Source of the DNA: a bacterium
Lineage (GTDB): Bacteria; Patescibacteriota; Minisyncoccia; Phycocordibacterales; UBA9973
Direction of reading: 5' to 3'
Assembly: GCA_021824345.1 (NCBI GenBank)
Contig: JAKAKW010000012.1
Span: 1,491 to 65,490 of the forward strand
Length of the DNA stretch: 64,000 nucleotides
The notes under the pieces: model-generated
Database searches by the model: none
The model's input: only the letters and a program-made list of their open reading frames with translations
Told to the model about the DNA's origin: nothing
Part shown: piece by piece, positions 4,568-54,569 of the stretch
Position numbering within the stretch: position 1 is the stretch's first letter
Layout: each line of letters begins with the position of its first letter
Program-made: the position numbers and the translations under genes

Positions 4568-4638
4568 GCCGATATAGTTCAGTGGCAGAACACTGCTTTC
4601 GTAAAGCAGGAACGTGGGTTCGATTCCCGCTCTCGGCT
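4568..4638 (+). tRNA. tRNA-Thr(CGU)
   Basis: Cloverleaf: acceptor GCCGATA/TCTCGGC (one mismatch), D-arm GTTC-AGTGGCA-GAAC, anticodon arm CTGCT-TTCGTAA-AGCAG (anticodon CGT), T-arm GTGGG-TTCGATT-CCCGC. Confidence 0.7.
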
Positions 4639-4655
4639 CAGAAGTTTGCGATATA

Positions 4656-4692
4656 GAAAAAGGGGGGGGGCAAATTTGCCCCCCCCCTTTCA
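4656..4692. terminator. Perfect palindrome AAAAAGGGGGGGGGCAAA|TTTGCCCCCCCCCCTTT downstream of the tRNAs (terminator-like hairpin)
   Basis: G9 and C10 runs flanking the self-complementary CAAATTTG core. Directly 3' of tRNA-Thr(CGU) and 5' of the DinD-like gene. Confidence 0.5.
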
Positions 4693-4763
4693 AATATGCT
4701 ACAATATCAGGGTCGAAGAAGACCTCCGCGAGTCTCATTATAAATTTAATGAGAATCAATGTC

Positions 4764-5612
4764 ATGAATGATCTGACGAAAATAGTGTTGTTTCAGAGCA
4801 AGCAGGTGCGAAAAACATTTCATAACGGAGAATGGTGGTTTTCTATCCTTGATGTGATAGAAGTGCTTACTGATTCCGTCCAGCCCGAAGGGTATTTGAA
4901 GGATTTAAGGAAAAGGAACGAGGCTCTCTCGGAAGAATGGGATCGCATTGCTGTTCCTCTAAAAATGCAAACTCCTGGCGGAATGCAGATAATCAATTGC
5001 GCAAACGTGGAAGGCGTTTTTCGCATTGTCCAATCCATTCCTTCTCCGAAAGCTGAGCCATTTAAGCGCTGGCTTGCCAAAGTGGGGTATGAGCGGGTGC
5101 GGGAAATAGAGGATCCGGAGCTTGCCACCAAGCGCACTCGGATGCTTTATAAGCTGAAAGGTTATCCGGATAATTGGATAGAAAAGCGCATGCGCGGAAT
5201 TGCCATCCGAGAAGAGCTCACTGATGAATGGAAAAATCGGGGAGCGAAAGGCAAGGACGATTATGAGATACTTACCGCGGAAATTTCAAAAGCGACGTTC
5301 GGGGTTACTCCTGACCAATACAAAAAAGTGAAAGGGCTGAAACGCCAGAATCTGCGGGACCACATGGACGATTTGGAGCTGATTTTTACCATGCTCGGAG
5401 AGCGGGCCACGACGGAGATCCATCGGGATGAAGACTCGCGCGGTTTGCCCAAACTGAAAGATGACGCCAAAAGCGGGGGAGATATCGCCGGCACGGCGCG
5501 GAAAAAATTGGAGAAGCGGCTGGGCCGGTCGGTGGTTTCCAAAAAGAATTTTCTGCCTGGAAACGCAGAAATCGCGAAGAAACTGACAAATAATGGTAAA
5601 AAAGGAAAATAA
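4764..5612 (+). CDS. dinD: DNA-damage-inducible protein D (DinD)-like protein with N-terminal Bro-N domain
   Basis: Bro-N-like N-terminus (FHNGEWWFSILDVIEVLT...GGMQIINCANVEGVFRIVQS...FKRWLAKVGYERVR). The C-terminal half resembles E. coli DinD. The track ORF starts at 4614 and overlaps the tRNA; the start was trimmed to the ATG at 4764 (alternative 4749). Confidence 0.7.
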   Translation: MNDLTKIVLFQSKQVRKTFHNGEWWFSILDVIEVLTDSVQPEGYLKDLRKRNEALSEEWDRIAVPLKMQTPGGMQIINCANVEGVFRIVQSIPSPKAEPFKRWLAKVGYERVREIEDPELATKRTRMLYKLKGYPDNWIEKRMRGIAIREELTDEWKNRGAKGKDDYEILTAEISKATFGVTPDQYKKVKGLKRQNLRDHMDDLELIFTMLGERATTEIHRDEDSRGLPKLKDDAKSGGDIAGTARKKLEKRLGRSVVSKKNFLPGNAEIAKKLTNNGKKGK

Positions 5613-22297: not shown

Positions 22298-23512
22298 CTA
22301 TTTTTGTTTTTGGCTTTTTAGAGTAAGGGCCGAGGTGCTCTCCAGCCTGCGCACGATCTCGGGGAATATAAGGATAACATAATCCAGGTCATCTTTGGAG
22401 GTATACTTGCCCAAAGTGAAGCGGATACTGCCGTGGGCCAATTCCGGACTTTGTCCTATGGCCAGAAGAACATGCGAAGGGGAAAGGCTCTTGGCGGAGC
22501 AGGCGCTGCCGGTGCTCGCTTCTATGCCGTAGTTGTCTAAAAGAAGAAGCATGGATTCTCCTTCAATATTCGGAATGGACACGTGCAGATTGTTGGGCAG
22601 GCGGCTTTTCGGGTCGCCGTTTATCAAAATATTCGGAATTTCTTCCTTCAATCTTTTTTCAAAATAATCGCGCAAAGTTGAAATTCTTTTTGATTCTTCT
22701 TCCCGCGATTCCTGCGCTTTCCGGAGCGCTTCGGCAAAGCCGACGATCAAGGGAACCGATTCGGTTCCGGCCCGCAATCCGGACTCCTGTTCTCCGCCCA
22801 AAATGATCGGCGCAAGCTTCGTTCTCTTTTTTACATACAGCGCGCCTATTCCTTTCGGCCCGTAGATTTTGGAACCGTTCAATGTCATGAGGTCCGCGCC
22901 GAGCTTCTTTACGTCAAGCGGAAGATATCCGGCGGCCTGGCACGCGTCAGTGTGAAAAATAGGAAACGCTCCGCCGGACTTTCTTTTTTTATTGATCGCC
23001 TCGGCGATTTCCTTTATCGGCTCCACTGTGCCGATCTCATTGTTCGCGTACATTACCGACACCAATATCGTTTCGGGCCGGATGGCCCGGGCAAGTTCTT
23101 TTGGATCCGCCCGGCCGGATTTGTCTACCGGCAGATAGGCGACCTTGAATCCTTCCTGCTCCAGTTCTTTGGCCGATTCCAGCACCGCTTTGTGTTCAAT
23201 GGCGGATACGATCACATGATTTCCCGCGGAACGGTTCGCCCGCGCCGCGCCCAAGATCGCCAGATTGTCAGACTCGGTTCCGCTGCCGGTAAAAATTATT
23301 TCTCCCGGAGAAGCGTTTATAATTTTCGCGGCATCTTCCCGGCAGAGTTCTATGATCCGGTTGGCGCGCCTTCCGCTTTGGTAAAGGGAAGAAGGGTTCC
23401 CGTATTGAGGGGAAAAATACGGCCGCATCTTTTCCAGCACTTCCGGGTCCGTAGGGGAGGTGGCCGCATAATCCAGATATATGGTTTTACCGTATGCCGC
23501 AGAATTTGACAT
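22298..23512 (-). CDS. iscS: Cysteine desulfurase (class V aminotransferase, IscS/NifS)
   Basis: YLDYAATSP N-terminus. PLP-lysine region (SGSKIYGPKG) and active-site Cys region (SACSAKS). The track start at 23539 is possible; the Met at 23512 is preferred. Confidence 0.85.
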   Translation of the reverse strand: MSNSAAYGKTIYLDYAATSPTDPEVLEKMRPYFSPQYGNPSSLYQSGRRANRIIELCREDAAKIINASPGEIIFTGSGTESDNLAILGAARANRSAGNHVIVSAIEHKAVLESAKELEQEGFKVAYLPVDKSGRADPKELARAIRPETILVSVMYANNEIGTVEPIKEIAEAINKKRKSGGAFPIFHTDACQAAGYLPLDVKKLGADLMTLNGSKIYGPKGIGALYVKKRTKLAPIILGGEQESGLRAGTESVPLIVGFAEALRKAQESREEESKRISTLRDYFEKRLKEEIPNILINGDPKSRLPNNLHVSIPNIEGESMLLLLDNYGIEASTGSACSAKSLSPSHVLLAIGQSPELAHGSIRFTLGKYTSKDDLDYVILIFPEIVRRLESTSALTLKSQKQK

Positions 23513-24176
23513 ATTTTGACATTTTAGCCTGCAAATCATCCAATTCCTCGTCCGTATAAGTGGTTTTCCGGCGGAATTGGGGGTTCAGAATCTTGGTGGA
23601 AACGAATTTCTGCAGATAGTACGCTTCCGCCCCTTTTATTTGTTTTCCTATTTCCAATATGTCCTCCGGAGGAGTGAGCGTCTTTACCAGAGTGGTTCTG
23701 AATTCGTACGGAACGCCGGAGGACATGAGGAGGGAAATGCTTTTCTTTATCGCTTCCGTATCCACTGGCATGGCCACTGTCTTGGAATAGTTGCGGAAAG
23801 GAGCCTTGATGTCCATGGCGATGTAATCCACAACTTTCCGCTTGATCGCTTTTTCCAGAATGTCCGGATTAGTGCCGTTTGAATCCAGTTTTACCAGAAG
23901 CCCGATGCCTTTCGCTTTTTTCATGAAAGAGAGCAGGTCTTCGCCATGAATGGTCGGCTCTCCGCCGGTGATTACCAAGGCGTCCACCATTCCTTTTCTG
24001 CCCTTCAGGAAGGCCAGCACATCTTCCTCCGGTATTCTGGTTTCCACCGTTTCGTCCACCAACTCCGGATTATGGCAGAAAGGGCAACGGAAGTTGCAGC
24101 CGATGGTATACACCATACTGGCTATCTTTCCCGGATAGTCTATTAAGGTAGTTTTTTCCAATCCTCCGAAAATCAT
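23487..24176 (-). CDS. nrdG: Anaerobic ribonucleoside-triphosphate reductase activating protein (radical SAM)
   Basis: CNFRCPFCHNPEL radical-SAM CxxxCxxC motif. Immediately downstream of nrdD. Confidence 0.8.
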   Translation of the reverse strand: MIFGGLEKTTLIDYPGKIASMVYTIGCNFRCPFCHNPELVDETVETRIPEEDVLAFLKGRKGMVDALVITGGEPTIHGEDLLSFMKKAKGIGLLVKLDSNGTNPDILEKAIKRKVVDYIAMDIKAPFRNYSKTVAMPVDTEAIKKSISLLMSSGVPYEFRTTLVKTLTPPEDILEIGKQIKGAEAYYLQKFVSTKILNPQFRRKTTYTDEELDDLQAKMSKYVKFCGIR

Positions 24177-44314: not shown

Positions 44315-44902
44315 TTATTGGTTGTTAATACGGCTATGATAACCAAGTTCTAAATCTTTTAGTAGTCGAGAAAAAGATGCTTCATTATCTCCCTCCCATG
44401 CATACCAAGTTATAAAGTTACCTCCATGTGATTTACTTATTATATTTAACACTTTTTGAACAACCGAGAAAATTTTTTCTATTTCTAAAGTATATATTTT
44501 CTCTTGTTGTGGGTTTTTGGGTTCATGCGCTGTAATGTTGTGTCGAAGAGTTTTAATTCTTTTTATCTCTTCTTGGATAGTGCTCAAGTGATAATTTGCC
44601 TCTCTTATATCATTAGAAGGTAGATTTTGTATTAAGGTTTGCAATTTGAGACTATCTTTTGGTTTATCGAAGAATTTATAAAGATCAGTAATGAAAGCAT
44701 TTTCAGTTGCATATAAAACACCACTAAAAATTCCACCATACCGGTTAAGGATACTGGCACGTCTATTTACTTCCTCTTTACCAACTTCCGGTATTGAAAG
44801 TGATTTACGGATATACTTCCAGATTTGAAAGCAACCATATGCACGATTCATTCTATGTACCAGCTTCCCAAAATCAGTTGTGGTGTCTATGTTAATCTCC
44901 AT
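44315..44902 (-). CDS. Hypothetical protein with HEPN-like R-x5-H motif (possible abortive-infection/RNase)
   Basis: LRHNITAHEP. AT-rich gene. 195 aa. Confidence 0.4.
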   Translation of the reverse strand: MEINIDTTTDFGKLVHRMNRAYGCFQIWKYIRKSLSIPEVGKEEVNRRASILNRYGGIFSGVLYATENAFITDLYKFFDKPKDSLKLQTLIQNLPSNDIREANYHLSTIQEEIKRIKTLRHNITAHEPKNPQQEKIYTLEIEKIFSVVQKVLNIISKSHGGNFITWYAWEGDNEASFSRLLKDLELGYHSRINNQ

Positions 44903-44928
44903 GTTTTAATTAATGAGCCCTTGGATAC

Positions 44929-45396
44929 CTACATTTTAAGATGAGCCCATCTAATCCAGTTACCCAGGAACCTACCTGATAAGTCGACAAGAGTTAAATC
45001 TTTTCCATTTACGGGACTCTTTTGTCCATGAAAAAGATTACATCTTATTTGGTATATAAAATCAACTACCTGACTAAAATCGGAAGTATCTTTTAGTTCT
45101 TTATATTCTCCGCGGTGATTAGGGCGCATGTCCTCAATGCGCGGATACTGCATCAGTCCTTGTAAGTCTGATGTGTCGAATTCTTTATCTATAAATAATT
45201 GTTTAAGTGAATTATCTGAATTTTTCAGCCAATCAATTTTTTGAGTATCACTATCTGCTTCAGATTCTGAAACCATATACGCATCTAGGCACATGTAATA
45301 GATGAAAAATCGAACGAACGGATCCAAATTATCTTTGGAAAGTTTCTTTTCTCTTAGAATCCACCAGTCGACTATATTTTTGAGGTTTTCATTCAT
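44929..45396 (-). CDS. HEPN-domain protein (R-x4-HG motif)
   Basis: IRCNLFHGQKS near the C-terminus of a 155-aa, helix-rich protein. Confidence 0.5.
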   Translation of the reverse strand: MNENLKNIVDWWILREKKLSKDNLDPFVRFFIYYMCLDAYMVSESEADSDTQKIDWLKNSDNSLKQLFIDKEFDTSDLQGLMQYPRIEDMRPNHRGEYKELKDTSDFSQVVDFIYQIRCNLFHGQKSPVNGKDLTLVDLSGRFLGNWIRWAHLKM

Positions 45397-45410
45397 AGCT
45401 GATATTGACG

Positions 45411-45478
45411 CTCCTCGGACTCCGAAAGCGTCTCAAACTGGCTGGCATTATGGCACGAAGTTAGAACTCGGAAGCCTT
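45411..45478. repeat. ~70-nt island repeat element, full copy 1
   Basis: TTGACGCTCCTCGGACTCCGAAAGCGTCTCAAACTGGCTGGCATTATGGCACGAAGTTAGAACTCGG. About 82% identical to the copy at 50917-50983. Confidence 0.6.
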
Positions 45479-46357: not shown

Positions 46358-49300
46358 ATGCACGAGACATCCGACAGGAAAATAATTCTGGCGACCGAGA
46401 GAAATGACACGTCTCATGAACTGAGAGGACACTTCAATCGGGACACATATCTAAAAACCGTAGAGCGCGCACTTGAGCGTGCCGAGACAAAAGAGAAAAT
46501 CATTGCGGTCATACGCGACGCAATCCGCGGACAGGCGGGACGAAAGGATCTTGAGGAACTCTTCGCATCAATCCGGTTCACATCGGATAAGAGCGACGAG
46601 GAGCGCTTTATCACCACCGACCGCTACATCACGATGGAGCTCGACGAGATTGAAGAATCACTTGCCGATCCAGACACGCGCGCCGAGTTCGACCGGATGT
46701 CCTTTGACGAATTCAAGAATGAGACACGGGAAGAGGTTGGCAGTCTTGTCGCACCAGAACTCAAGGACGCAGGCGCACCAGAACTTACACGGGTACTTAA
46801 GTATGTCGGCGAACGGCTGATCGTGCCCGACTACAATGTATCGGAGCTTATTGGGTTCATAAACGACTACTGCACCATCGCGCCGGGAAGAGAAGTGATT
46901 GTAGATCGGTGCGTATTCGGCGCAGATCCGAAAGAAAAGAATAATTTGTTCAGCGCGCGTAGCGATCTTAAGGAAATCCTCGAAGATCCCGAAACGTGCG
47001 AGAAGATAGACATTATCATATCCAGCAATCTCATCGAGCGATTCACATTCTCCGCCGGTCTGTCGCATTCGACGGATAAATCGGATTCAGATATGCGACT
47101 GTTCTTGAATGCGGTGTTGATTGAGAGCCTTAAACTTGCCGCGCACAACGAATATCTGACGATCACGTCCAAAGATCGGATCTACGCGCACGCTGTCAAT
47201 AGGATCACTGAAAAACGGCTCGCGGATATCCATGCGTTTGACTCCACCCTTACCACGATCGACCTGGACAATCTCCGCGATTTCCAAATACTGGAAGGTC
47301 TGCCTGAAGCAGGCCGTGCGTTCTGCAAGAAGATCTATGAAGCAACCGGGCTCGCGGGCACCGGCGCTTTCAACCGGATCGGTATCAGCTATTTCTCCGA
47401 CGCACTTGCCGACCCGGAAAAGTTTCGCAAGCTCGAACTCGCGTATGACCTTGGTGCGATCAGCGGTTTTACCTCTTCCTACGAAGGTGATCTGACGAAA
47501 AGAATTTTCACCTGGAGCGATGAACAGATTAAGAGCGTCGCCATGGGCTTCAAGACCGGCCTCGTGAAGGGGCCTTCGGATGGACGCGCCATCGCGCGGA
47601 TTCTCACCCTAAATACCGATGACCTCCTCTCTCTCAACGAAGCCGGGGAGACACTCTTGGTCGGCAATGAACTGCTCAATGCGCTCCGCGCATCGAGCCC
47701 CGAAGACCGCGCAGAGTATAAAAGCATCCTCGCTTCGATCGAGGGAAACCAATGGGTTAAGGAGGAGAAAAAAATGGAACTCCTACGGTATGCTGAAGAA
47801 CTCCGCACACTCACCCCGGACGCCCGTGCATTCCTCGATGCATGGCACGCGCACCAAGGACAATTCTACAGTAGCCAGGTTGAAGCGTACACCGAACCAC
47901 TCAAGAAAGCGAGCCTCTATCCCGATGTCCTCGCCCGCATGGCCGATCGGTACCGCGACCTGGACAACCAGAAGCTTATGTTCAATCTGCTCTCGGACGG
48001 ATATATGGACCTCATAGACATCGACCGCGAGCTCTCCGCGTTCGCGCGGGATCCCAACGCCTACCTCCTCAAATTTCCTCGCCCGTCCGATGTCTTCGAT
48101 CATTTTCGCGAGTTCGAAGACATTATGAATCGCCGCAATCAACCCATGCGCGACGATGTTCACAAAACAATTTTTTTCAGCACGTTCGTCGCGCAGGCCA
48201 CGACCCGCATATCGAATAATGTGGATTTCCCTTACACTACCGACGAGCGCCACGTTTCAGAACTCGCGGGGCGCCTCGCTTCTTGGTACGCCAGCGCGTA
48301 TGATGCGCAGGAAATTCTTTCCACGATCGTCCACATGCACGACGATCTTGCAGACGTCACGTCGGTGCTCGAGCGCATCACGGATGACCCGGATTCCTTT
48401 TTTAAACAGCGCCCGCAGGACGTGATGAAGAATTACGACGCAATCGCGGCGGAACTTGCGAGCCGCGGCAAACGTCTCCACCAGACTACGCTCGACGTGG
48501 CATTCGAGAACACCTTGCGCATGAACCCCGCTCTCCTCATGCGGGAAACCGAGTTTCCATTCACGTCGGAACAGCAAACGATCGCGGACCTCTTCCAGCG
48601 TATTCACAAGTCCCCGTCCCACGAGATAAAGAACATGGACGTCGAGATCGCTGAACAGATCGCTCGGAACGGCGATCTCTCCACCTATGAGGACCGCTAC
48701 CGCGTGATCGAAGAGATCTTCGTCAAGAATAATCTTCCATTTGTCGGCAAGCAAGAGAAGGTCTGCGAGGTGCTGCACCCTGAGATCGAGACGCGGGAAA
48801 ATTCCAGCCCGGTTCTCCAATCCCTCCACGGCACAAACGCGCGGAGGCTACTCGTCTTCAAGGATCTGATGCGCGCAAGCGTACAGAGCCTCAATATGAA
48901 CCTAGAGCAGTATCTCCTAGTCCTTAAGAATGGCGCTACAGTCCTTGACCGATTCGAATCCGGAGCAACGCTCGACGACGACGAAACAGAACAGTTGAAA
49001 TATTTCTTCCGAAAGATAAACGCTCTTACCGAGAACACGCGATTGAACGCGAATGCCACGACCTTTGATCCCGATCGGACGAGTCTCGCCGAGAACCTCG
49101 CCGCACTTCGAAAGAATTTCGGTGTACGCAAGGGGGAAACGATTACCGACAAGTTCACTCGGACGTTCCTGCGGCGGATCGACATCAACTCCATTGATGA
49201 CGCGCTTAGGCAGTTCATCAATCTGCGGAGCGTCGCAGACACGCGCAACCGTGAATTCGCATCATCCGGAAAAATTATTCTCAGTCCGACGGATCTCGCG

Positions 49301-50725
49301 AAAGGCGTCGACTCCGCCTTCTTCGACACCTTCCTCGACCGCGGCGTCTATTCCCCAGAGTTCATCGGCGCAGAAACGGAAGTCGCGAAAGCAAAGGCGA
49401 AGCGAACCGACATGACCCCATGGGACACCGACGTGATCACTGTCGGAGACCGCGATGCGCGCGTGATCGTAGAAGACTCAACGGCTAGCGCATACGGCGA
49501 CGTTATCATAATCGTCCGCGATCGCGGCCAATTCGACCATACCAAGGTCGGCCAACCGCTCCCTGCCGACTCGGGCAAAATGGAACTCTTCAGAACGGGC
49601 GGGACGAACAGCGACCACTTTGGAATCCGCACAGGGTTCGGCTCCACGGAGATCAGCGCGCTTCTCGTGAAGGATAAGATTGCAACGGATGATCGTGCAC
49701 TCTCCGAAATAAAATTCTCAATCGCGAAGAAGGGTTTCTACATCCCCGTCTGCGATAAATCGGGGCGCGTGCTCTTTTCGAGTAATGAATTTGAAACATA
49801 CCGCGCTATCTTCCGTGGCATCGACCGCTACCACGGGGACCCGATCGCTGTGGATGAAACATGGCGCGAATCCCTCTTCCGTGAGGACATCGAATCCGTC
49901 GCACAGACAGAAGGGAATTTGGAAAAGCTCCAAGTGCTCCGCGCCGGGCTCTACGCCGATCTGGCGCACGACCTTAAGGGCAACGGGATCACTCTGCACC
50001 AGGAACGCTATGACGACAGCGTCGTCGGCGCACGGATCGTTGACACCGGCTCGACGGGCCGCGGTGCCGCGCTTGACGAGGGATACGACTTCGACTTTGT
50101 CGTGAAGCTCGACGACGTCGACTTCAACAAGGTTCCCGCCATTACCAATACACTCGAATCCAAATATCCCCTCAACACGAGTTACGAACGCAACGGCATG
50201 CACACGTTCCGCTTTAAGAATTTCGAGCGCGACGGCGAGACGATCAGCCTCGATATCAGCTTCATAAAGAAATCCGACAGCGAAGAACTAGACGCAAATG
50301 AGGCTGTCACGCAGAAATATAATTCGATCCGAAACAAGAGCGGCGAAAAGGCGTGGCTCGACACGCTGACGAACGTGCGCTTCGCAAAACGCGAACTGAA
50401 ACGCGCGGAATGTTATAAGAAAGGAATGGCGGGAGTAGGAGAACAGCAAGGGGGGCTTGGCGGTATCGGCGTGGAGAACTGGATACTCAAGTACGGTGGC
50501 AATGCGATAAAAGCGTTCCGCGACTTCCACGACCACGCATACCGCGAGGGCACGCTCGTGCCGTTCGCAGAATTCAAACAGACTTATCACGTGTTCAGTG
50601 CGGGAGAGAATGTCCGGGGTGGCGTGCGGGCCGAGGATTTCGTCGCACATATGGACGAAACAGGATACCGCAAAATGGCGGAGCTTTCCCGAAAGTTCGT
50701 TCTATCGGAAGCTGACTTGCTCTGA
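46358..50725 (+). CDS. Giant (1455 aa) protein with C-terminal Pol-beta-superfamily nucleotidyltransferase motif; visibly GC-rich relative to neighbours
   Basis: An uninterrupted 4.37-kb ORF with an in-frame stop 4 codons upstream of the ATG. Near-C-terminal GSTGRGAALDEGYDFDFVV (hG[GS]-x9-13-DhD nucleotidyltransferase signature, as in GlnE/GlnD, cGAS/DncV-like and MNT enzymes) followed by GGLGGIGVENWIL. The remaining ~1150 aa have no motif I recognise. The flanks are AT-rich. Confidence 0.6.
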   Translation: MHETSDRKIILATERNDTSHELRGHFNRDTYLKTVERALERAETKEKIIAVIRDAIRGQAGRKDLEELFASIRFTSDKSDEERFITTDRYITMELDEIEESLADPDTRAEFDRMSFDEFKNETREEVGSLVAPELKDAGAPELTRVLKYVGERLIVPDYNVSELIGFINDYCTIAPGREVIVDRCVFGADPKEKNNLFSARSDLKEILEDPETCEKIDIIISSNLIERFTFSAGLSHSTDKSDSDMRLFLNAVLIESLKLAAHNEYLTITSKDRIYAHAVNRITEKRLADIHAFDSTLTTIDLDNLRDFQILEGLPEAGRAFCKKIYEATGLAGTGAFNRIGISYFSDALADPEKFRKLELAYDLGAISGFTSSYEGDLTKRIFTWSDEQIKSVAMGFKTGLVKGPSDGRAIARILTLNTDDLLSLNEAGETLLVGNELLNALRASSPEDRAEYKSILASIEGNQWVKEEKKMELLRYAEELRTLTPDARAFLDAWHAHQGQFYSSQVEAYTEPLKKASLYPDVLARMADRYRDLDNQKLMFNLLSDGYMDLIDIDRELSAFARDPNAYLLKFPRPSDVFDHFREFEDIMNRRNQPMRDDVHKTIFFSTFVAQATTRISNNVDFPYTTDERHVSELAGRLASWYASAYDAQEILSTIVHMHDDLADVTSVLERITDDPDSFFKQRPQDVMKNYDAIAAELASRGKRLHQTTLDVAFENTLRMNPALLMRETEFPFTSEQQTIADLFQRIHKSPSHEIKNMDVEIAEQIARNGDLSTYEDRYRVIEEIFVKNNLPFVGKQEKVCEVLHPEIETRENSSPVLQSLHGTNARRLLVFKDLMRASVQSLNMNLEQYLLVLKNGATVLDRFESGATLDDDETEQLKYFFRKINALTENTRLNANATTFDPDRTSLAENLAALRKNFGVRKGETITDKFTRTFLRRIDINSIDDALRQFINLRSVADTRNREFASSGKIILSPTDLAKGVDSAFFDTFLDRGVYSPEFIGAETEVAKAKAKRTDMTPWDTDVITVGDRDARVIVEDSTASAYGDVIIIVRDRGQFDHTKVGQPLPADSGKMELFRTGGTNSDHFGIRTGFGSTEISALLVKDKIATDDRALSEIKFSIAKKGFYIPVCDKSGRVLFSSNEFETYRAIFRGIDRYHGDPIAVDETWRESLFREDIESVAQTEGNLEKLQVLRAGLYADLAHDLKGNGITLHQERYDDSVVGARIVDTGSTGRGAALDEGYDFDFVVKLDDVDFNKVPAITNTLESKYPLNTSYERNGMHTFRFKNFERDGETISLDISFIKKSDSEELDANEAVTQKYNSIRNKSGEKAWLDTLTNVRFAKRELKRAECYKKGMAGVGEQQGGLGGIGVENWILKYGGNAIKAFRDFHDHAYREGTLVPFAEFKQTYHVFSAGENVRGGVRAEDFVAHMDETGYRKMAELSRKFVLSEADLL

Positions 50726-50854
50726 CCCACATCGGCATATGCTAACACTGTATAAGAAGTGATCGTAGGAAGATCCGACAGGCAAACTATGCCAATCATC
50801 AAATTCGAACCAATTTTGCGTTGAAAATTATACTCGTTTTTCTTCCGTCATTTT

Positions 50855-50872
50855 GACGCTCCTCGGAACGAT
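50855..50872. repeat. Island repeat element, internally deleted mini-copy (TTGACGCTCCTCGGAACG...)
   Basis: 5' 15 nt of the element joined to a tail (GGAACGATTTTAGCT) resembling the 46084 copy's tail (GGAACTTTTTTAGCT). Confidence 0.4.
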
Positions 50873-50916
50873 TTTAGCTGTTTCAAATATCCTTGCAGGG
50901 CTTGATGCTCCTCGGA

Positions 50917-50983
50917 GTCCGAACGCGCCTCAAGCTGGCTGGCCGTATGGTATGAAGTTGGAACTGTGGTTGCTTAAAATCTT
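50917..50983. repeat. ~70-nt island repeat element, full copy 2
   Basis: TTGATGCTCCTCGGAGTCCGAACGCGCCTCAAGCTGGCTGGCCGTATGGTATGAAGTTGGAACTGTGG. Confidence 0.6.
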
Positions 50984-50989
50984 AAACGA

Positions 50990-52141
50990 TCAACTGTTTG
51001 TAGAAATTTTATTGATAAACCTCCTTGCTCTTTCATCAGGAGACGTTTTATCTACTTTCGGTTCCCAAGCTTTATATACTTCCAAAATTCCTGTATAAAT
51101 AGCATTGCCTGTTGTTATAAAGCGGTGTTGAAGTAACAACACTGCATTGCTTTCAACTAAAAAAATAAAACCAGGTTTTACACAATTTAACGATAAATGG
51201 TCAATAGTTCCTGAGTTTATAATTCTACGAGAGAATTCTTCAAGAGTGTCCAATAAGGGAATGAGGTTTTCTGAATGTGCTCTAGAAAAAGAATAAAGTC
51301 TGTGTTGTCCGTCAATGATCCAACAAGCGCTGTAGCTATTTTTAATAGTCAAAGTGCCGACTTCTGAGTGATTTTTCGACTCTAATCCTGAAATTTTCAC
51401 GAAATTCTTATCTCCTTCCTTTAGCGAAATAATCACATTTGTCGGAAAAATCCCTCCATTATCAAGGAATTGTTGGATTTTTCTTATACGATTTTTATCC
51501 AACATTCTTTGGTAAAAATCTTCTTTTTGTGATCTTCTTCGTGCAACATAAGAAAATTTTAGTAATTCTTTTGGATTTGCGTAAAAACTATATGTTACGT
51601 ATTTTCCTATCTTTGTTTTTAAAGCGGCAACATTTAATTGTTCGTTTTCTGGCGGCCGAATTCCATAATCAGCAAGGAAATTAAAAACTGCGTATTCTCC
51701 TATTTTTTCGTAAAGCTCACTGTAATATTCTAGAAGATTTTCATCAGCATACCAGAAATGAGTTTCTTTGAATAATTCTTTTTCTGATTCAGGAATCTCA
51801 ATTTTTTTTGTTATGAAAATAAATTTGACAAATTTACATTGGGAATATTCTGGAATAGTTTTGTATCCTTCTAGAACCATTCTGGCTCTTTCTTTGGTAG
51901 CTAATATATCTTGGCGAAGATTTTTTTTGACTTTTCTGCCTGCTGCTTTACATTCAAAAACGAATAATATATCCTTGTATCTTCCACAAGCGTCAATCTG
52001 ATTCTTTTCTCCATTAGGCGCTATATGAAAATCTTGTCCCCCTTTTACATCAGAAAACTTTAGTTTTTCTTCTAAAAAAATTTTTACCTCGTTTTCAAAA
52101 TCTTTTCCGTAATCTTTTTTTTCTAATTCAATTTCTTCCAT
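50990..52141 (-). CDS. DGQHR-domain protein (DndB/DpdB-like, ParB/Srx-fold)
   Basis: Exact DGQHR motif in ACWIIDGQHRLYSF. 383 aa, AT-rich. Confidence 0.7.
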   Translation of the reverse strand: MEEIELEKKDYGKDFENEVKIFLEEKLKFSDVKGGQDFHIAPNGEKNQIDACGRYKDILFVFECKAAGRKVKKNLRQDILATKERARMVLEGYKTIPEYSQCKFVKFIFITKKIEIPESEKELFKETHFWYADENLLEYYSELYEKIGEYAVFNFLADYGIRPPENEQLNVAALKTKIGKYVTYSFYANPKELLKFSYVARRRSQKEDFYQRMLDKNRIRKIQQFLDNGGIFPTNVIISLKEGDKNFVKISGLESKNHSEVGTLTIKNSYSACWIIDGQHRLYSFSRAHSENLIPLLDTLEEFSRRIINSGTIDHLSLNCVKPGFIFLVESNAVLLLQHRFITTGNAIYTGILEVYKAWEPKVDKTSPDERARRFINKISTNS

Positions 52142-52425
52142 AAAATAGTTTTTATAAATGATAAAGAATATTTTTCTTTAATCCTTAAGCCTAAATATTC
52201 TACAACATTGTCGTTTTTTATTCAACCTTGATTTTTTTGAAAAAGTGCTATACTTATTCCCTGTATAGGCATGATCTTTGACTGATAAACACTGTATTTC
52301 TACTGTGATCAGTTCGGGATACGTGCCCACTTTGCCTCCTCTAGAAATAAAGAACAAACAAGCCTTTTATTAAATGGCTATTGCTTGTTGTTTATTTCAA
52401 AGTGCATACCTGTACCGAAAGGTAT

Positions 52426-52896
52426 ATGGAGACAAATGGATTCTCACAAAAATTAATAAGGGAAACGATTAAATGCTTCAAAGAAGAAGACGGTATTTCG
52501 CTATCTGAAAATGAAGCAATAGCGATATTGGAATCCTTTGCCGGTTTGTTCCTAGCCTTTGCGGGTCAAAAGCCTCGCGAGCCCATGTTGGGCCGCGAGG
52601 CTTTTCCCTCTGGTCGTAAGGCTCCTGACTTGATATCGGAACTCATTGAACTCTTGGACAAAGTGGACTTGGATGAGCTTGGAATCAAGTCGCGGATTGA
52701 AGACGAGATCAGCAGATTCAATAAATTCAGAACAGGAGTATTGGGTCACAAGCAGGAAAAAGTATCGCTGGATGTGGACGTGCGAAACTACGCAAAATAC
52801 CTTCTCAAAAACGGAACGCTAATGGAGAAAAGAGAACTGCTGTCATGTTTAAAAAGCGAACTAGTTCTCAAAGAAAAAAAGATATTACTGGAATAG
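52426..52896 (+). CDS. Hypothetical protein
   Basis: The track ORF starts at 52381; the internal ATG METNGFSQK at 52426 is more plausible. No motifs. Confidence 0.4.
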   Translation: METNGFSQKLIRETIKCFKEEDGISLSENEAIAILESFAGLFLAFAGQKPREPMLGREAFPSGRKAPDLISELIELLDKVDLDELGIKSRIEDEISRFNKFRTGVLGHKQEKVSLDVDVRNYAKYLLKNGTLMEKRELLSCLKSELVLKEKKILLE

Positions 52897-54451: not shown

Positions 54452-54498
54452 ATAATAAAATATAAAGCCTCTCGGTCACCTGACTTGTCATAAGACTG

Positions 54499-54569
54499 CT
54501 GCCGGACTTGGATTCGAACCAAGATTGCGTGATTCAGAGTCACGATGCCTACCATTAGCAGATCCGGCA
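54499..54569 (-). tRNA. tRNA-Gln(CUG)
   Basis: Minus-strand cloverleaf: U1-A72 first pair (a Gln hallmark), anticodon arm CGTGA-CTCTGAA-TCACG (anticodon CTG), T-arm CTTGG-TTCGAAT-CCAAG. Confidence 0.7.

Follow-up and report, generated by a model that had tools for sequence, protein, structure and literature searches.

A DGQHR-domain open reading frame in a Patescibacteriota genome as a truncated, chimeric derivative of a predicted three-domain nuclease family

A stretch of 64,000 nucleotides of contig JAKAKW010000012.1 (positions 1,491 to 65,490; assembly GCA_021824345.1, lineage UBA9973 of the Patescibacteriota), hereafter the window, contains an open reading frame (ORF) whose 383-amino-acid product includes the sequence IIDGQHRLY. 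The ORF list confirmed that this reading frame is real and runs from ATG to stop codon on the reverse strand at positions 50990..52141. In a preliminary description of the window the DGQHR pentapeptide had been taken as diagnostic of the DndB/DpdB proteins, and a function linked to DNA modification had been proposed. The question raised by the locus is therefore whether this gene points to phosphorothioate or 7-deazaguanine chemistry in the genome, or whether it has another origin. The description that suits the ORF best is that of a shortened and chimeric offshoot of a family of ~670-residue proteins with a PD-(D/E)xK, DGQHR and HEPN-like layout.

The match between the 383-residue protein and the DGQHR family was found to be far beyond chance. 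Both hidden Markov models (HMMs) that the preliminary description had suggested as a check recovered the protein above their cut-offs, TIGR03187 with 80.5 bits (cut-off 58.85; E = 1.7e-22) and PF14072 with 37.4 bits (cut-off 29.1), and the DGQHR pentapeptide itself was located at residues 277-281 (nucleotides 51313..51299). However, these generic models were matched only in part. The TIGR03187 match extended over residues 173-292, corresponding to profile positions 1-118 of 276 only, and PF14072 was covered from position 3 to position 115 of 338, whereas a full-length relative (P0012) scored 119 bits on TIGR03187 across profile positions 1-246. A complete domain would be expected to cover the greater part of the 276 profile positions. 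In the window copy the domain is kept over its initial ~43% only, and this first part of the ParB-like DGQHR domain was placed by the TIGR03187 match and the alignment at residues ~169-297 (51251..51637, reverse strand). The motifs that define the DGQHR domain are a QR pair, DGQHR and FxxxN (PMC4619093). The 383-residue protein carries the QR pair (Q211 and R212) and DGQHR, but lacks FxxxN, since its resemblance to the family ends at residue ~297, ahead of the point at which the relatives show 'FFLEIN'.

Relatives were retrieved from a search of 5.8 billion proteins, which returned 48 proteins besides the 383-residue protein itself. The complete ones among them were 655-671 amino acids in length, and each of the 48 aligned with only the first ~75-78% of the query. 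Alignment showed that similarity spans residue 1 to residue ~297 (nucleotide 51251), ending '...DGQHRLYSFSRAHSENLIP', with identities to the family of 55-74% over this shared part. Beyond the breakpoint the relatives continue with 'CIAF....ER.FFLEINREQKPIQPDLIWDLEG' and then ~350 more residues, and this continuation, with its FFLEINxEQKPI..DLIWDLEG stretch, has no counterpart in the 383-residue protein. Nucleotide alignments with the closest relatives (72-73% identity) broke off at ~51279. The missing 3' half was sought throughout the window by tblastn with three relatives (E <= 10), which returned only 52141..51251, and no trace of it was recovered from the six-frame translation of 50700-51270 with the family HMM run without filters, or by tblastx against all family loci. 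As judged from these alignments, the ORF constitutes the 5' 45% of a ~670-residue family gene, of which the 3' ~1.1 kb (~370 residues) is gone from the window. Among what was lost are the half of the DGQHR domain that carries FxxxN and the C-terminal helical region with its invariant Rx4H.

In place of the missing half, the truncated gene is fused in frame to an unrelated tail of 86 codons (50993..51250, reverse strand; guanine-cytosine (GC) content 0.33), which did not resemble the family in whatever frame it was compared, and no other protein among the 5.8 billion spanned this tail or shared its end point. An AlphaFold2 model of the 383-residue protein reflected the same boundary, with a predicted local distance difference test (pLDDT) score of ~90 for residues 1-300, exceeding 90 in the nuclease domain, and of ~30 for residues 302-383. 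The nuclease domain in question is a putative N-terminal PD-(D/E)xK domain of the NERD/Hjc/Card1 type at residues ~1-160 (51662..52141, reverse strand). The family alignment identified F15, E16, Q48, D50, E63-x-K65 and C64 as near-invariant, and E16, D50 and E63-x-K65 are intact in the window copy, whilst the Pfam NERD match to this copy was weak (E = 0.005).

A break of this kind could conceivably have been created during assembly or binning by a chimeric join at ~51250, an explanation in keeping with the shift in composition over 50.7-51.0 kb and with the origin of the sequence from a metagenome-assembled genome (MAG). We consider it exceedingly improbable. The same 383-residue ORF, flanked to left and right by the same genes, was present in 12 contigs (20 kb to 334 kb in length) retrieved from ENA, NCBI and Logan, including GCA_027428375.1, and since independent assemblies agree, the truncation is not an assembly artefact. 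The GC shift is moreover situated ~300 nucleotides away from the homology breakpoint.

The explanation that we favour, and regard as probable, is that the ORF is the dead remnant of a horizontally acquired three-domain nuclease gene, left behind from a decayed restriction or defence island. Its predicted regulatory and NTP (nucleoside triphosphate)-binding domain is incomplete, and for this reason the window copy would be unable to perform the mechanism proposed below for the family. It also stands without any of the partner genes seen beside intact members, in that the methyltransferase, helix-turn-helix (HTH), restriction enzyme, helicase and DUF2779 genes of the family loci have left no trace in the window. 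Several observations nonetheless weigh against a dead gene. Given its composition, the tail would stay open for 86 codons by chance with P~0.0008. On codon usage it scored 0.075, which exceeded the scores of all out-of-frame windows (maximum -0.054) and of the intergenic controls (maximum -0.005), being slightly under that of the lowest in-frame window of the neighbouring genes (0.086). On the basis of its open length and codon usage, the tail was probably once coding in this frame. In addition, the 297 kept codons are free of stop codons, the catalytic residues of the nuclease are retained, and the 383-residue sequence is stable and identical across the 12 contigs. Translation of the ORF, as a chimeric gene, may thus continue.

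Taken further, these observations would suit a functional short form, in which part of a ParB-like module and a newly acquired helical tail have been kept together with an intact PD-(D/E)xK nuclease, as a small nuclease or toxin of the island. To the open tail and the intact catalytic residues can be added the confident modelling of residues 1-300 and a promoter-like site ~55 nucleotides upstream, though such sites were no commoner here than in shuffled sequence. We nevertheless consider a functional short form, though a genuine alternative, unlikely. The tail and its end point are unique to this protein and the tail was modelled at a pLDDT of ~30, whilst the DGQHR domain, being cut before the FxxxN helix, would probably not adopt the fold seen in the relatives. 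The 12 contigs look like a single population, and therefore their identity tells little about selection. Survival of the copy as a small chimeric nuclease is accordingly held to be less likely than its being a fossil.

Damaged copies were also encountered elsewhere in the family. The two closest relatives (L057, 3429-5443, and L058, 1197-3234), which are 74% and 71% identical to the window copy, are full-length with one frameshift each; another locus (L041, 10001-12002) has no intact ORF, and two further loci (L011 and L024) are partial. Decay consequently appears frequent in this family. The interruptions in L057, L058 and L041 suggest either frequent inactivation of family members or homopolymer sequencing errors in AT-rich DNA. 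The damage to the window copy differs in kind from that of its frameshifted relatives, in that ~1.1 kb has been lost from its 3' end.

The parent family has no name, and was represented here by an alignment (A2), with P0010 and P0012 among its full-length members. Intact members consist of an N-terminal PD-(D/E)xK nuclease, a DGQHR/ParB-like middle and a helical C-terminus with a HEPN-like Rx4H motif. Pfam DndB was matched by all 23 full-length members that were scanned, whilst weak matches to Pfam NERD, Hjc or Card1_endonuc were obtained at the N-terminus in six of the 23. Sub-threshold matches to HEPN_Swt1 or HEPN_RiboL-PSP were seen in nine of the 23 (best E 9e-5), and to Abi_2 in one. The C-terminal ~350 residues are helical and end in the invariant R...H of 'IRNPxxHGK' (R624 and H629 of P0010). 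A spacing of Rx4-6H is typical of HEPN domains. The AlphaFold2 model of P0010 was of good quality (pLDDT 86.7; predicted template modelling score 0.67), and Foldseek searches of the PDB with this model returned local PD-(D/E)xK matches to Cdn1, Card1, Can2, VC1899, AF1548, MspJI, McrC, AspBHI and Hjc, along with local matches to ParB-CDP and PadC.

A PDB sequence search returned no entry matching the family, and no characterised member, paper, PADLOC model or structure was found for it in the literature, in PADLOC or by sequence in the PDB. Neither does a dedicated Pfam, NCBIfam or PADLOC model exist for the ~670-residue layout. The family is sizeable: at E <= 1e-30 it comprised 809 cluster representatives (50% identity), and nearly all of the best 150 of these 809 were near full length. 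Its type of architecture has already been described in general terms, as ParB-like DGQHR/COG1479 cores are often fused to HNH, PD-(D/E)xK and HEPN nucleases and are linked to restriction-modification (Makarova et al. 2013, PMC3632139), an account with which the gene context of the parent family also agrees. What sets the family apart from DGQHR proteins at large (TIGR03187/PF14072, within the ParB/Srx-like COG1479/DUF262 assemblage) is its own fixed three-domain layout. Its intact members share FxxxN with these proteins, along with the QR pair and DGQHR that persist in the window ORF.

In species-representative genomes, 42 family loci were identified in an eclectic set of lineages. Bacterial representatives belonged to the Paceibacteria, Parcubacteria, Microgenomates, Kaiserbacteria and Saccharibacteria, and also to the Dehalococcoidia, Planctomycetota, Omnitrophica and Bacteroidetes, whilst archaeal representatives belonged to the Aenigmatarchaeota, Micrarchaeota, Woesearchaeota and Thermoplasmata. 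No synteny was shared between these loci and the window, or amongst the loci themselves. This absence of shared synteny, together with the patchy distribution across lineages, argues for horizontal transfer of the family.

The neighbours of the family genes were surveyed with Pfam in 37 loci, for all 113 ORFs at a distance of no more than two genes. Most frequent were N6_N4_Mtase (seven) and the C5 DNA_methylase (three), followed by RE_HaeIII, Vsr, DUF2779, an IS200 transposase, RE_NgoPII and DpnI, and none of the 113 ORFs was a dnd, dpd, ssp, queC or tgt gene. A local iterative search placed a DNA methyltransferase (N6/N4 or C5) no more than two genes away in 10 of the 37 loci. In three loci (L029, 8825-11965; L031, 9107-11977; L032, 2795-5679) a methyltransferase on the same strand ends 13-40 nucleotides before the DGQHR gene, the pairs in L029 and L031 being from Dehalococcoidia. 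An N6_N4 methyltransferase and an HTH gene also accompany the full-length member P0016. Elsewhere, the Pfam context showed the family gene directly after a Mod/Res-like pair (L005), or a C5 methylase together with a HATPase_c_3 protein (L007), and one locus (L061, 377-4093) comprises a cassette of N6_N4 methyltransferase, HTH_3, family gene and HTH with no other restriction enzyme. An abutting methyltransferase or a cassette without another restriction enzyme is the layout expected of a restriction subunit. One more locus (L025, 401-3780) was listed among those with an abutting methyltransferase or a methyltransferase/HTH cassette.

The intact protein can thus be proposed, by analogy, as an effector of restriction and defence islands. 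In such a protein the DGQHR domain would have NTP and/or DNA as its ligands and would gate the PD-(D/E)xK DNase, as in the analogous systems GmrSD, SspE and BrxU, whilst the HEPN-like end may be an RNase. In approximately a quarter of the loci the protein would serve as the restriction partner of the adjacent methyltransferase, and elsewhere it would act as a solitary effector. GmrSD, SspE and BrxU are type IV restriction proteins in which a DUF262 ParB-like NTPase is joined to a DUF1524 HNH nuclease. The parent family resembles them in the fusion of a ParB-like module to nucleases within one protein and in its occurrence in restriction-modification and defence islands, but differs in the motif, which is DGQQR in those proteins and DGQHR in the window ORF and the family, and in the nucleases, with HNH there and PD-(D/E)xK plus a HEPN-like domain here. 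Pfam detected no HNH/DUF1524 domain in the 383-residue protein or its relatives, and GmrSD_N scored 15 bits against the 383-residue protein, below its cut-off of 33.2.

A more specific proposal is that the intact family is an uncharacterised single-chain effector of restriction or abortive infection, which in some lineages would be encoded in cassettes of two or three genes, next to an apparently orphan methyltransferase and an HTH resembling a C-protein, and would there act as the restriction subunit, the window copy being a fossil of this system. We put this forward tentatively, as a possibility that is rather doubtful at present. Certain points temper any such functional reading of the family: the HEPN assignment consists of sub-threshold Pfam matches and a motif, the Foldseek E-values were weak (0.06-2.6) although the probabilities were ~0.7-1.0, methyltransferase adjacency was seen in only ~27% of the loci, and the function proposed from sequence is a candidate function only. 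Nonetheless, the parent family is large, well modelled structurally and experimentally untouched, and is repeatedly paired with DNA methyltransferases in bacteria of the candidate phyla radiation, DPANN archaea and Dehalococcoidia, and it is hence a reasonable candidate for defence-system screening.

These results can be set against the proposal from which the question arose, namely that the ORF is an orphan DndB/DpdB-like regulator or ATPase that cooperates with a QueC-like protein and a giant nucleotidyltransferase (NTase) in making or sensing 7-deazaguanine or phosphorothioate DNA. The DGQHR domain is indeed common to DndB and DpdB, and membership of the ParB-like DGQHR superfamily stood, but an identity as DndB or DpdB did not. 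The DpdB equivalog model NF041060 scored 52.6 bits against a cut-off of 300, and the dnd-associated DGQHR model TIGR04172 scored 37.9 bits against a cut-off of 450. Even the full-length relative P0012 reached only 67.7 bits on NF041060. PADLOC returned domain-level matches to DpdB and DndB only, with DpdB the best at 50.7 bits. Half of the domain is lost in addition. The pentapeptide, here within a broken gene, does not by itself identify either protein, and the value of the locus is as a correction on this point.

Comparison with the named systems leads in the same direction. DndB, the regulator of DndACDE phosphorothioation, has a ParB-like DGQHR domain, and it is itself composed of a ParB-like and a C-terminal HEPN domain (PMC3632139), as is the case in the parent family. 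The parent family, however, has roughly double the length of DndB and begins with a PD-(D/E)xK nuclease that DndB lacks, and no dndA, dndC, dndD or dndE was located beside the window ORF or in the ~40 family loci. DpdB, the ParB-like ATPase of the Dpd 7-deazaguanine system, gave the best named domain-level match in both PADLOC and NCBIfam, yet neither the window nor the family loci contained a dpdA/tgt, queC, dpdC or helicase partner. Across the ~40 loci no dnd or dpd genes were found at all.

As the preliminary description had stated, Dnd and Dpd partners are missing from the window, with Pfam and NCBIfam scans of ~50 ORFs detecting no QueC, QueD, QueE, Tgt/DpdA or DndACDE. The QueC-like protein said to be encoded further along could not be substantiated, since no SGGxDS-type PP-loop motif was matched in any real ORF by regular-expression searches of all six frames of the window, and Pfam and NCBIfam were negative. 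The sole radical-SAM gene of the window was considered as a possible QueE and rejected (32.7 bits against a cut-off of 260), this gene being NrdG2, which adjoins NrdD. The only Aminotran_5 gene (22298..23539) also adjoins nrdG/nrdD and is 28 kb from the ORF.

The giant protein that had been named as a partner is encoded by an ORF of 1455 amino acids on the forward strand (46358..50725), which is convergent with the remnant and has a GC content of 0.54 between low-GC flanks. A word-indexed search of the 5.8 billion proteins returned no homologue but the protein itself, and it had no Pfam, NCBIfam, PADLOC or PDB-sequence match. Its NTase label could not be verified, the only support being a GS...DxD-like 'GSTGRGAALDEGYDFDF' string near the C-terminus that was recognised by eye. 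On its sequence, this is a large orphan gene. It was rejected as a partner, as no family locus contains a homologue and its GC content of 0.54 contrasts with 0.32 for the remnant.

For these reasons the orphan-regulator proposal is judged, from the window and the family loci, very improbable, and the window gene is most likely unconnected with phosphorothioation or 7-deazaguanine. The proposed link to DNA modification survives loosely at the level of the family, where it concerns ordinary methyltransferases (in the 10 of 37 loci noted above), and not for 7-deazaguanine or phosphorothioate. The locus thus has little consequence for this genome, in which it provides no pointer to hidden DNA chemistry of either kind and gives no grounds for mass spectrometry of the DNA.

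A low-GC block encloses the remnant (0.32), a His_Phos_1 gene (0.38) and a DHH gene (0.36), as compared with 0.48 for the window. On the reverse strand at 50802..50821 there is a 19-nucleotide fragment, 17 of the 19 positions of which are identical to an internal part of the tRNA-Gln gene at 54498-54569 (reverse strand). Its alignment score of 15 compared with 8.0 +/- 1.2 for shuffled sequences, none of 1000 of which reached 15. As controls, 238 other pieces of the window scored no higher than 13, and tRNA-Thr scored 7. Judged on sequence, this direct repeat might be a degraded attachment (att) repeat of a 3.7-kb low-GC island (50.8-54.5 kb), though no integrase is present. Between the two repeats the low-GC block holds the DGQHR remnant, a 171-residue ORF, His_Phos_1 and DHH/DHHA2. 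The 171-residue ORF (52381-52896, forward strand) is divergent from the remnant and has a GC content of 0.42. It is at most a doubtful gene, since its coding score was modest (0.12) and it matched no Pfam, NCBIfam or PADLOC family.

A second feature of the junction is a conserved intergenic element of ~60 nucleotides, one copy of which (copy 2; 50902..50965, reverse strand) is located 25 nucleotides downstream of the stop codon of the remnant. It is 84% identical to copy 1 at 45405-45468, and the pattern was matched twice in the window where none was expected. The core of the element reads GCCAGCCAGyTTGAG-N5-6-TTCGGA-N-TCCGAr. Elsewhere the element precedes start codons by 10-60 nucleotides. 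It was found on seven metagenome contigs (L050-L056), in front of genes unrelated to one another, and two of these contigs share the FtsE-FtsX-PyrG gene order of the window; in a Paceibacteria MAG (L008, 9909-9964) it lies 22-60 nucleotides upstream of an intact DGQHR homologue. Copy 2 looks orphaned, as only a 7-codon ORF follows it, and it marks the stretch that separates the remnant from the giant gene as rearranged.

The element had no Rfam match, folded no better than shuffled sequences and showed no covariation beyond a 5-bp hairpin. An identity as an attC site or a tRNA was rejected, the element being neither attC-like nor tRNA-like. It could be a promoter or operator, in which TTGAGA would be the -35 box and the spacer would hold a palindrome, or else a mobile-element end. 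Together, the element and the tRNA-Gln fragment fit, weakly, a rearranged and decaying island.

The remaining genes of the window include NrdD/NrdG2, the class-V aminotransferase, DHODH, enolase, PyrG and FtsEX, as well as RF, PPDK, glycerate kinase, DinB, MurL, DAGK, GrpB and others. On the other side of the giant gene, two small low-GC ORFs are situated at 44315-45396 (reverse strand). The product of one is a HEPN_AbiU2 protein, which scored 36.9 bits where the cut-off is 26.8, and the other, of 155 amino acids, had a weak PADLOC match to DzbB (E 1.2e-5), with copy 1 of the ~60-nucleotide element directly before it. These two ORFs may form a second small defence or toxin islet. At a further tRNA gene, tRNA-Thr (4568-4639), the tRNA overlaps the listed GTG start of an ORF (4614..5612) that encodes the phage-type domain Bro-N, and this pair (4568-5612) may be the remnant of a prophage or island at a tRNA.

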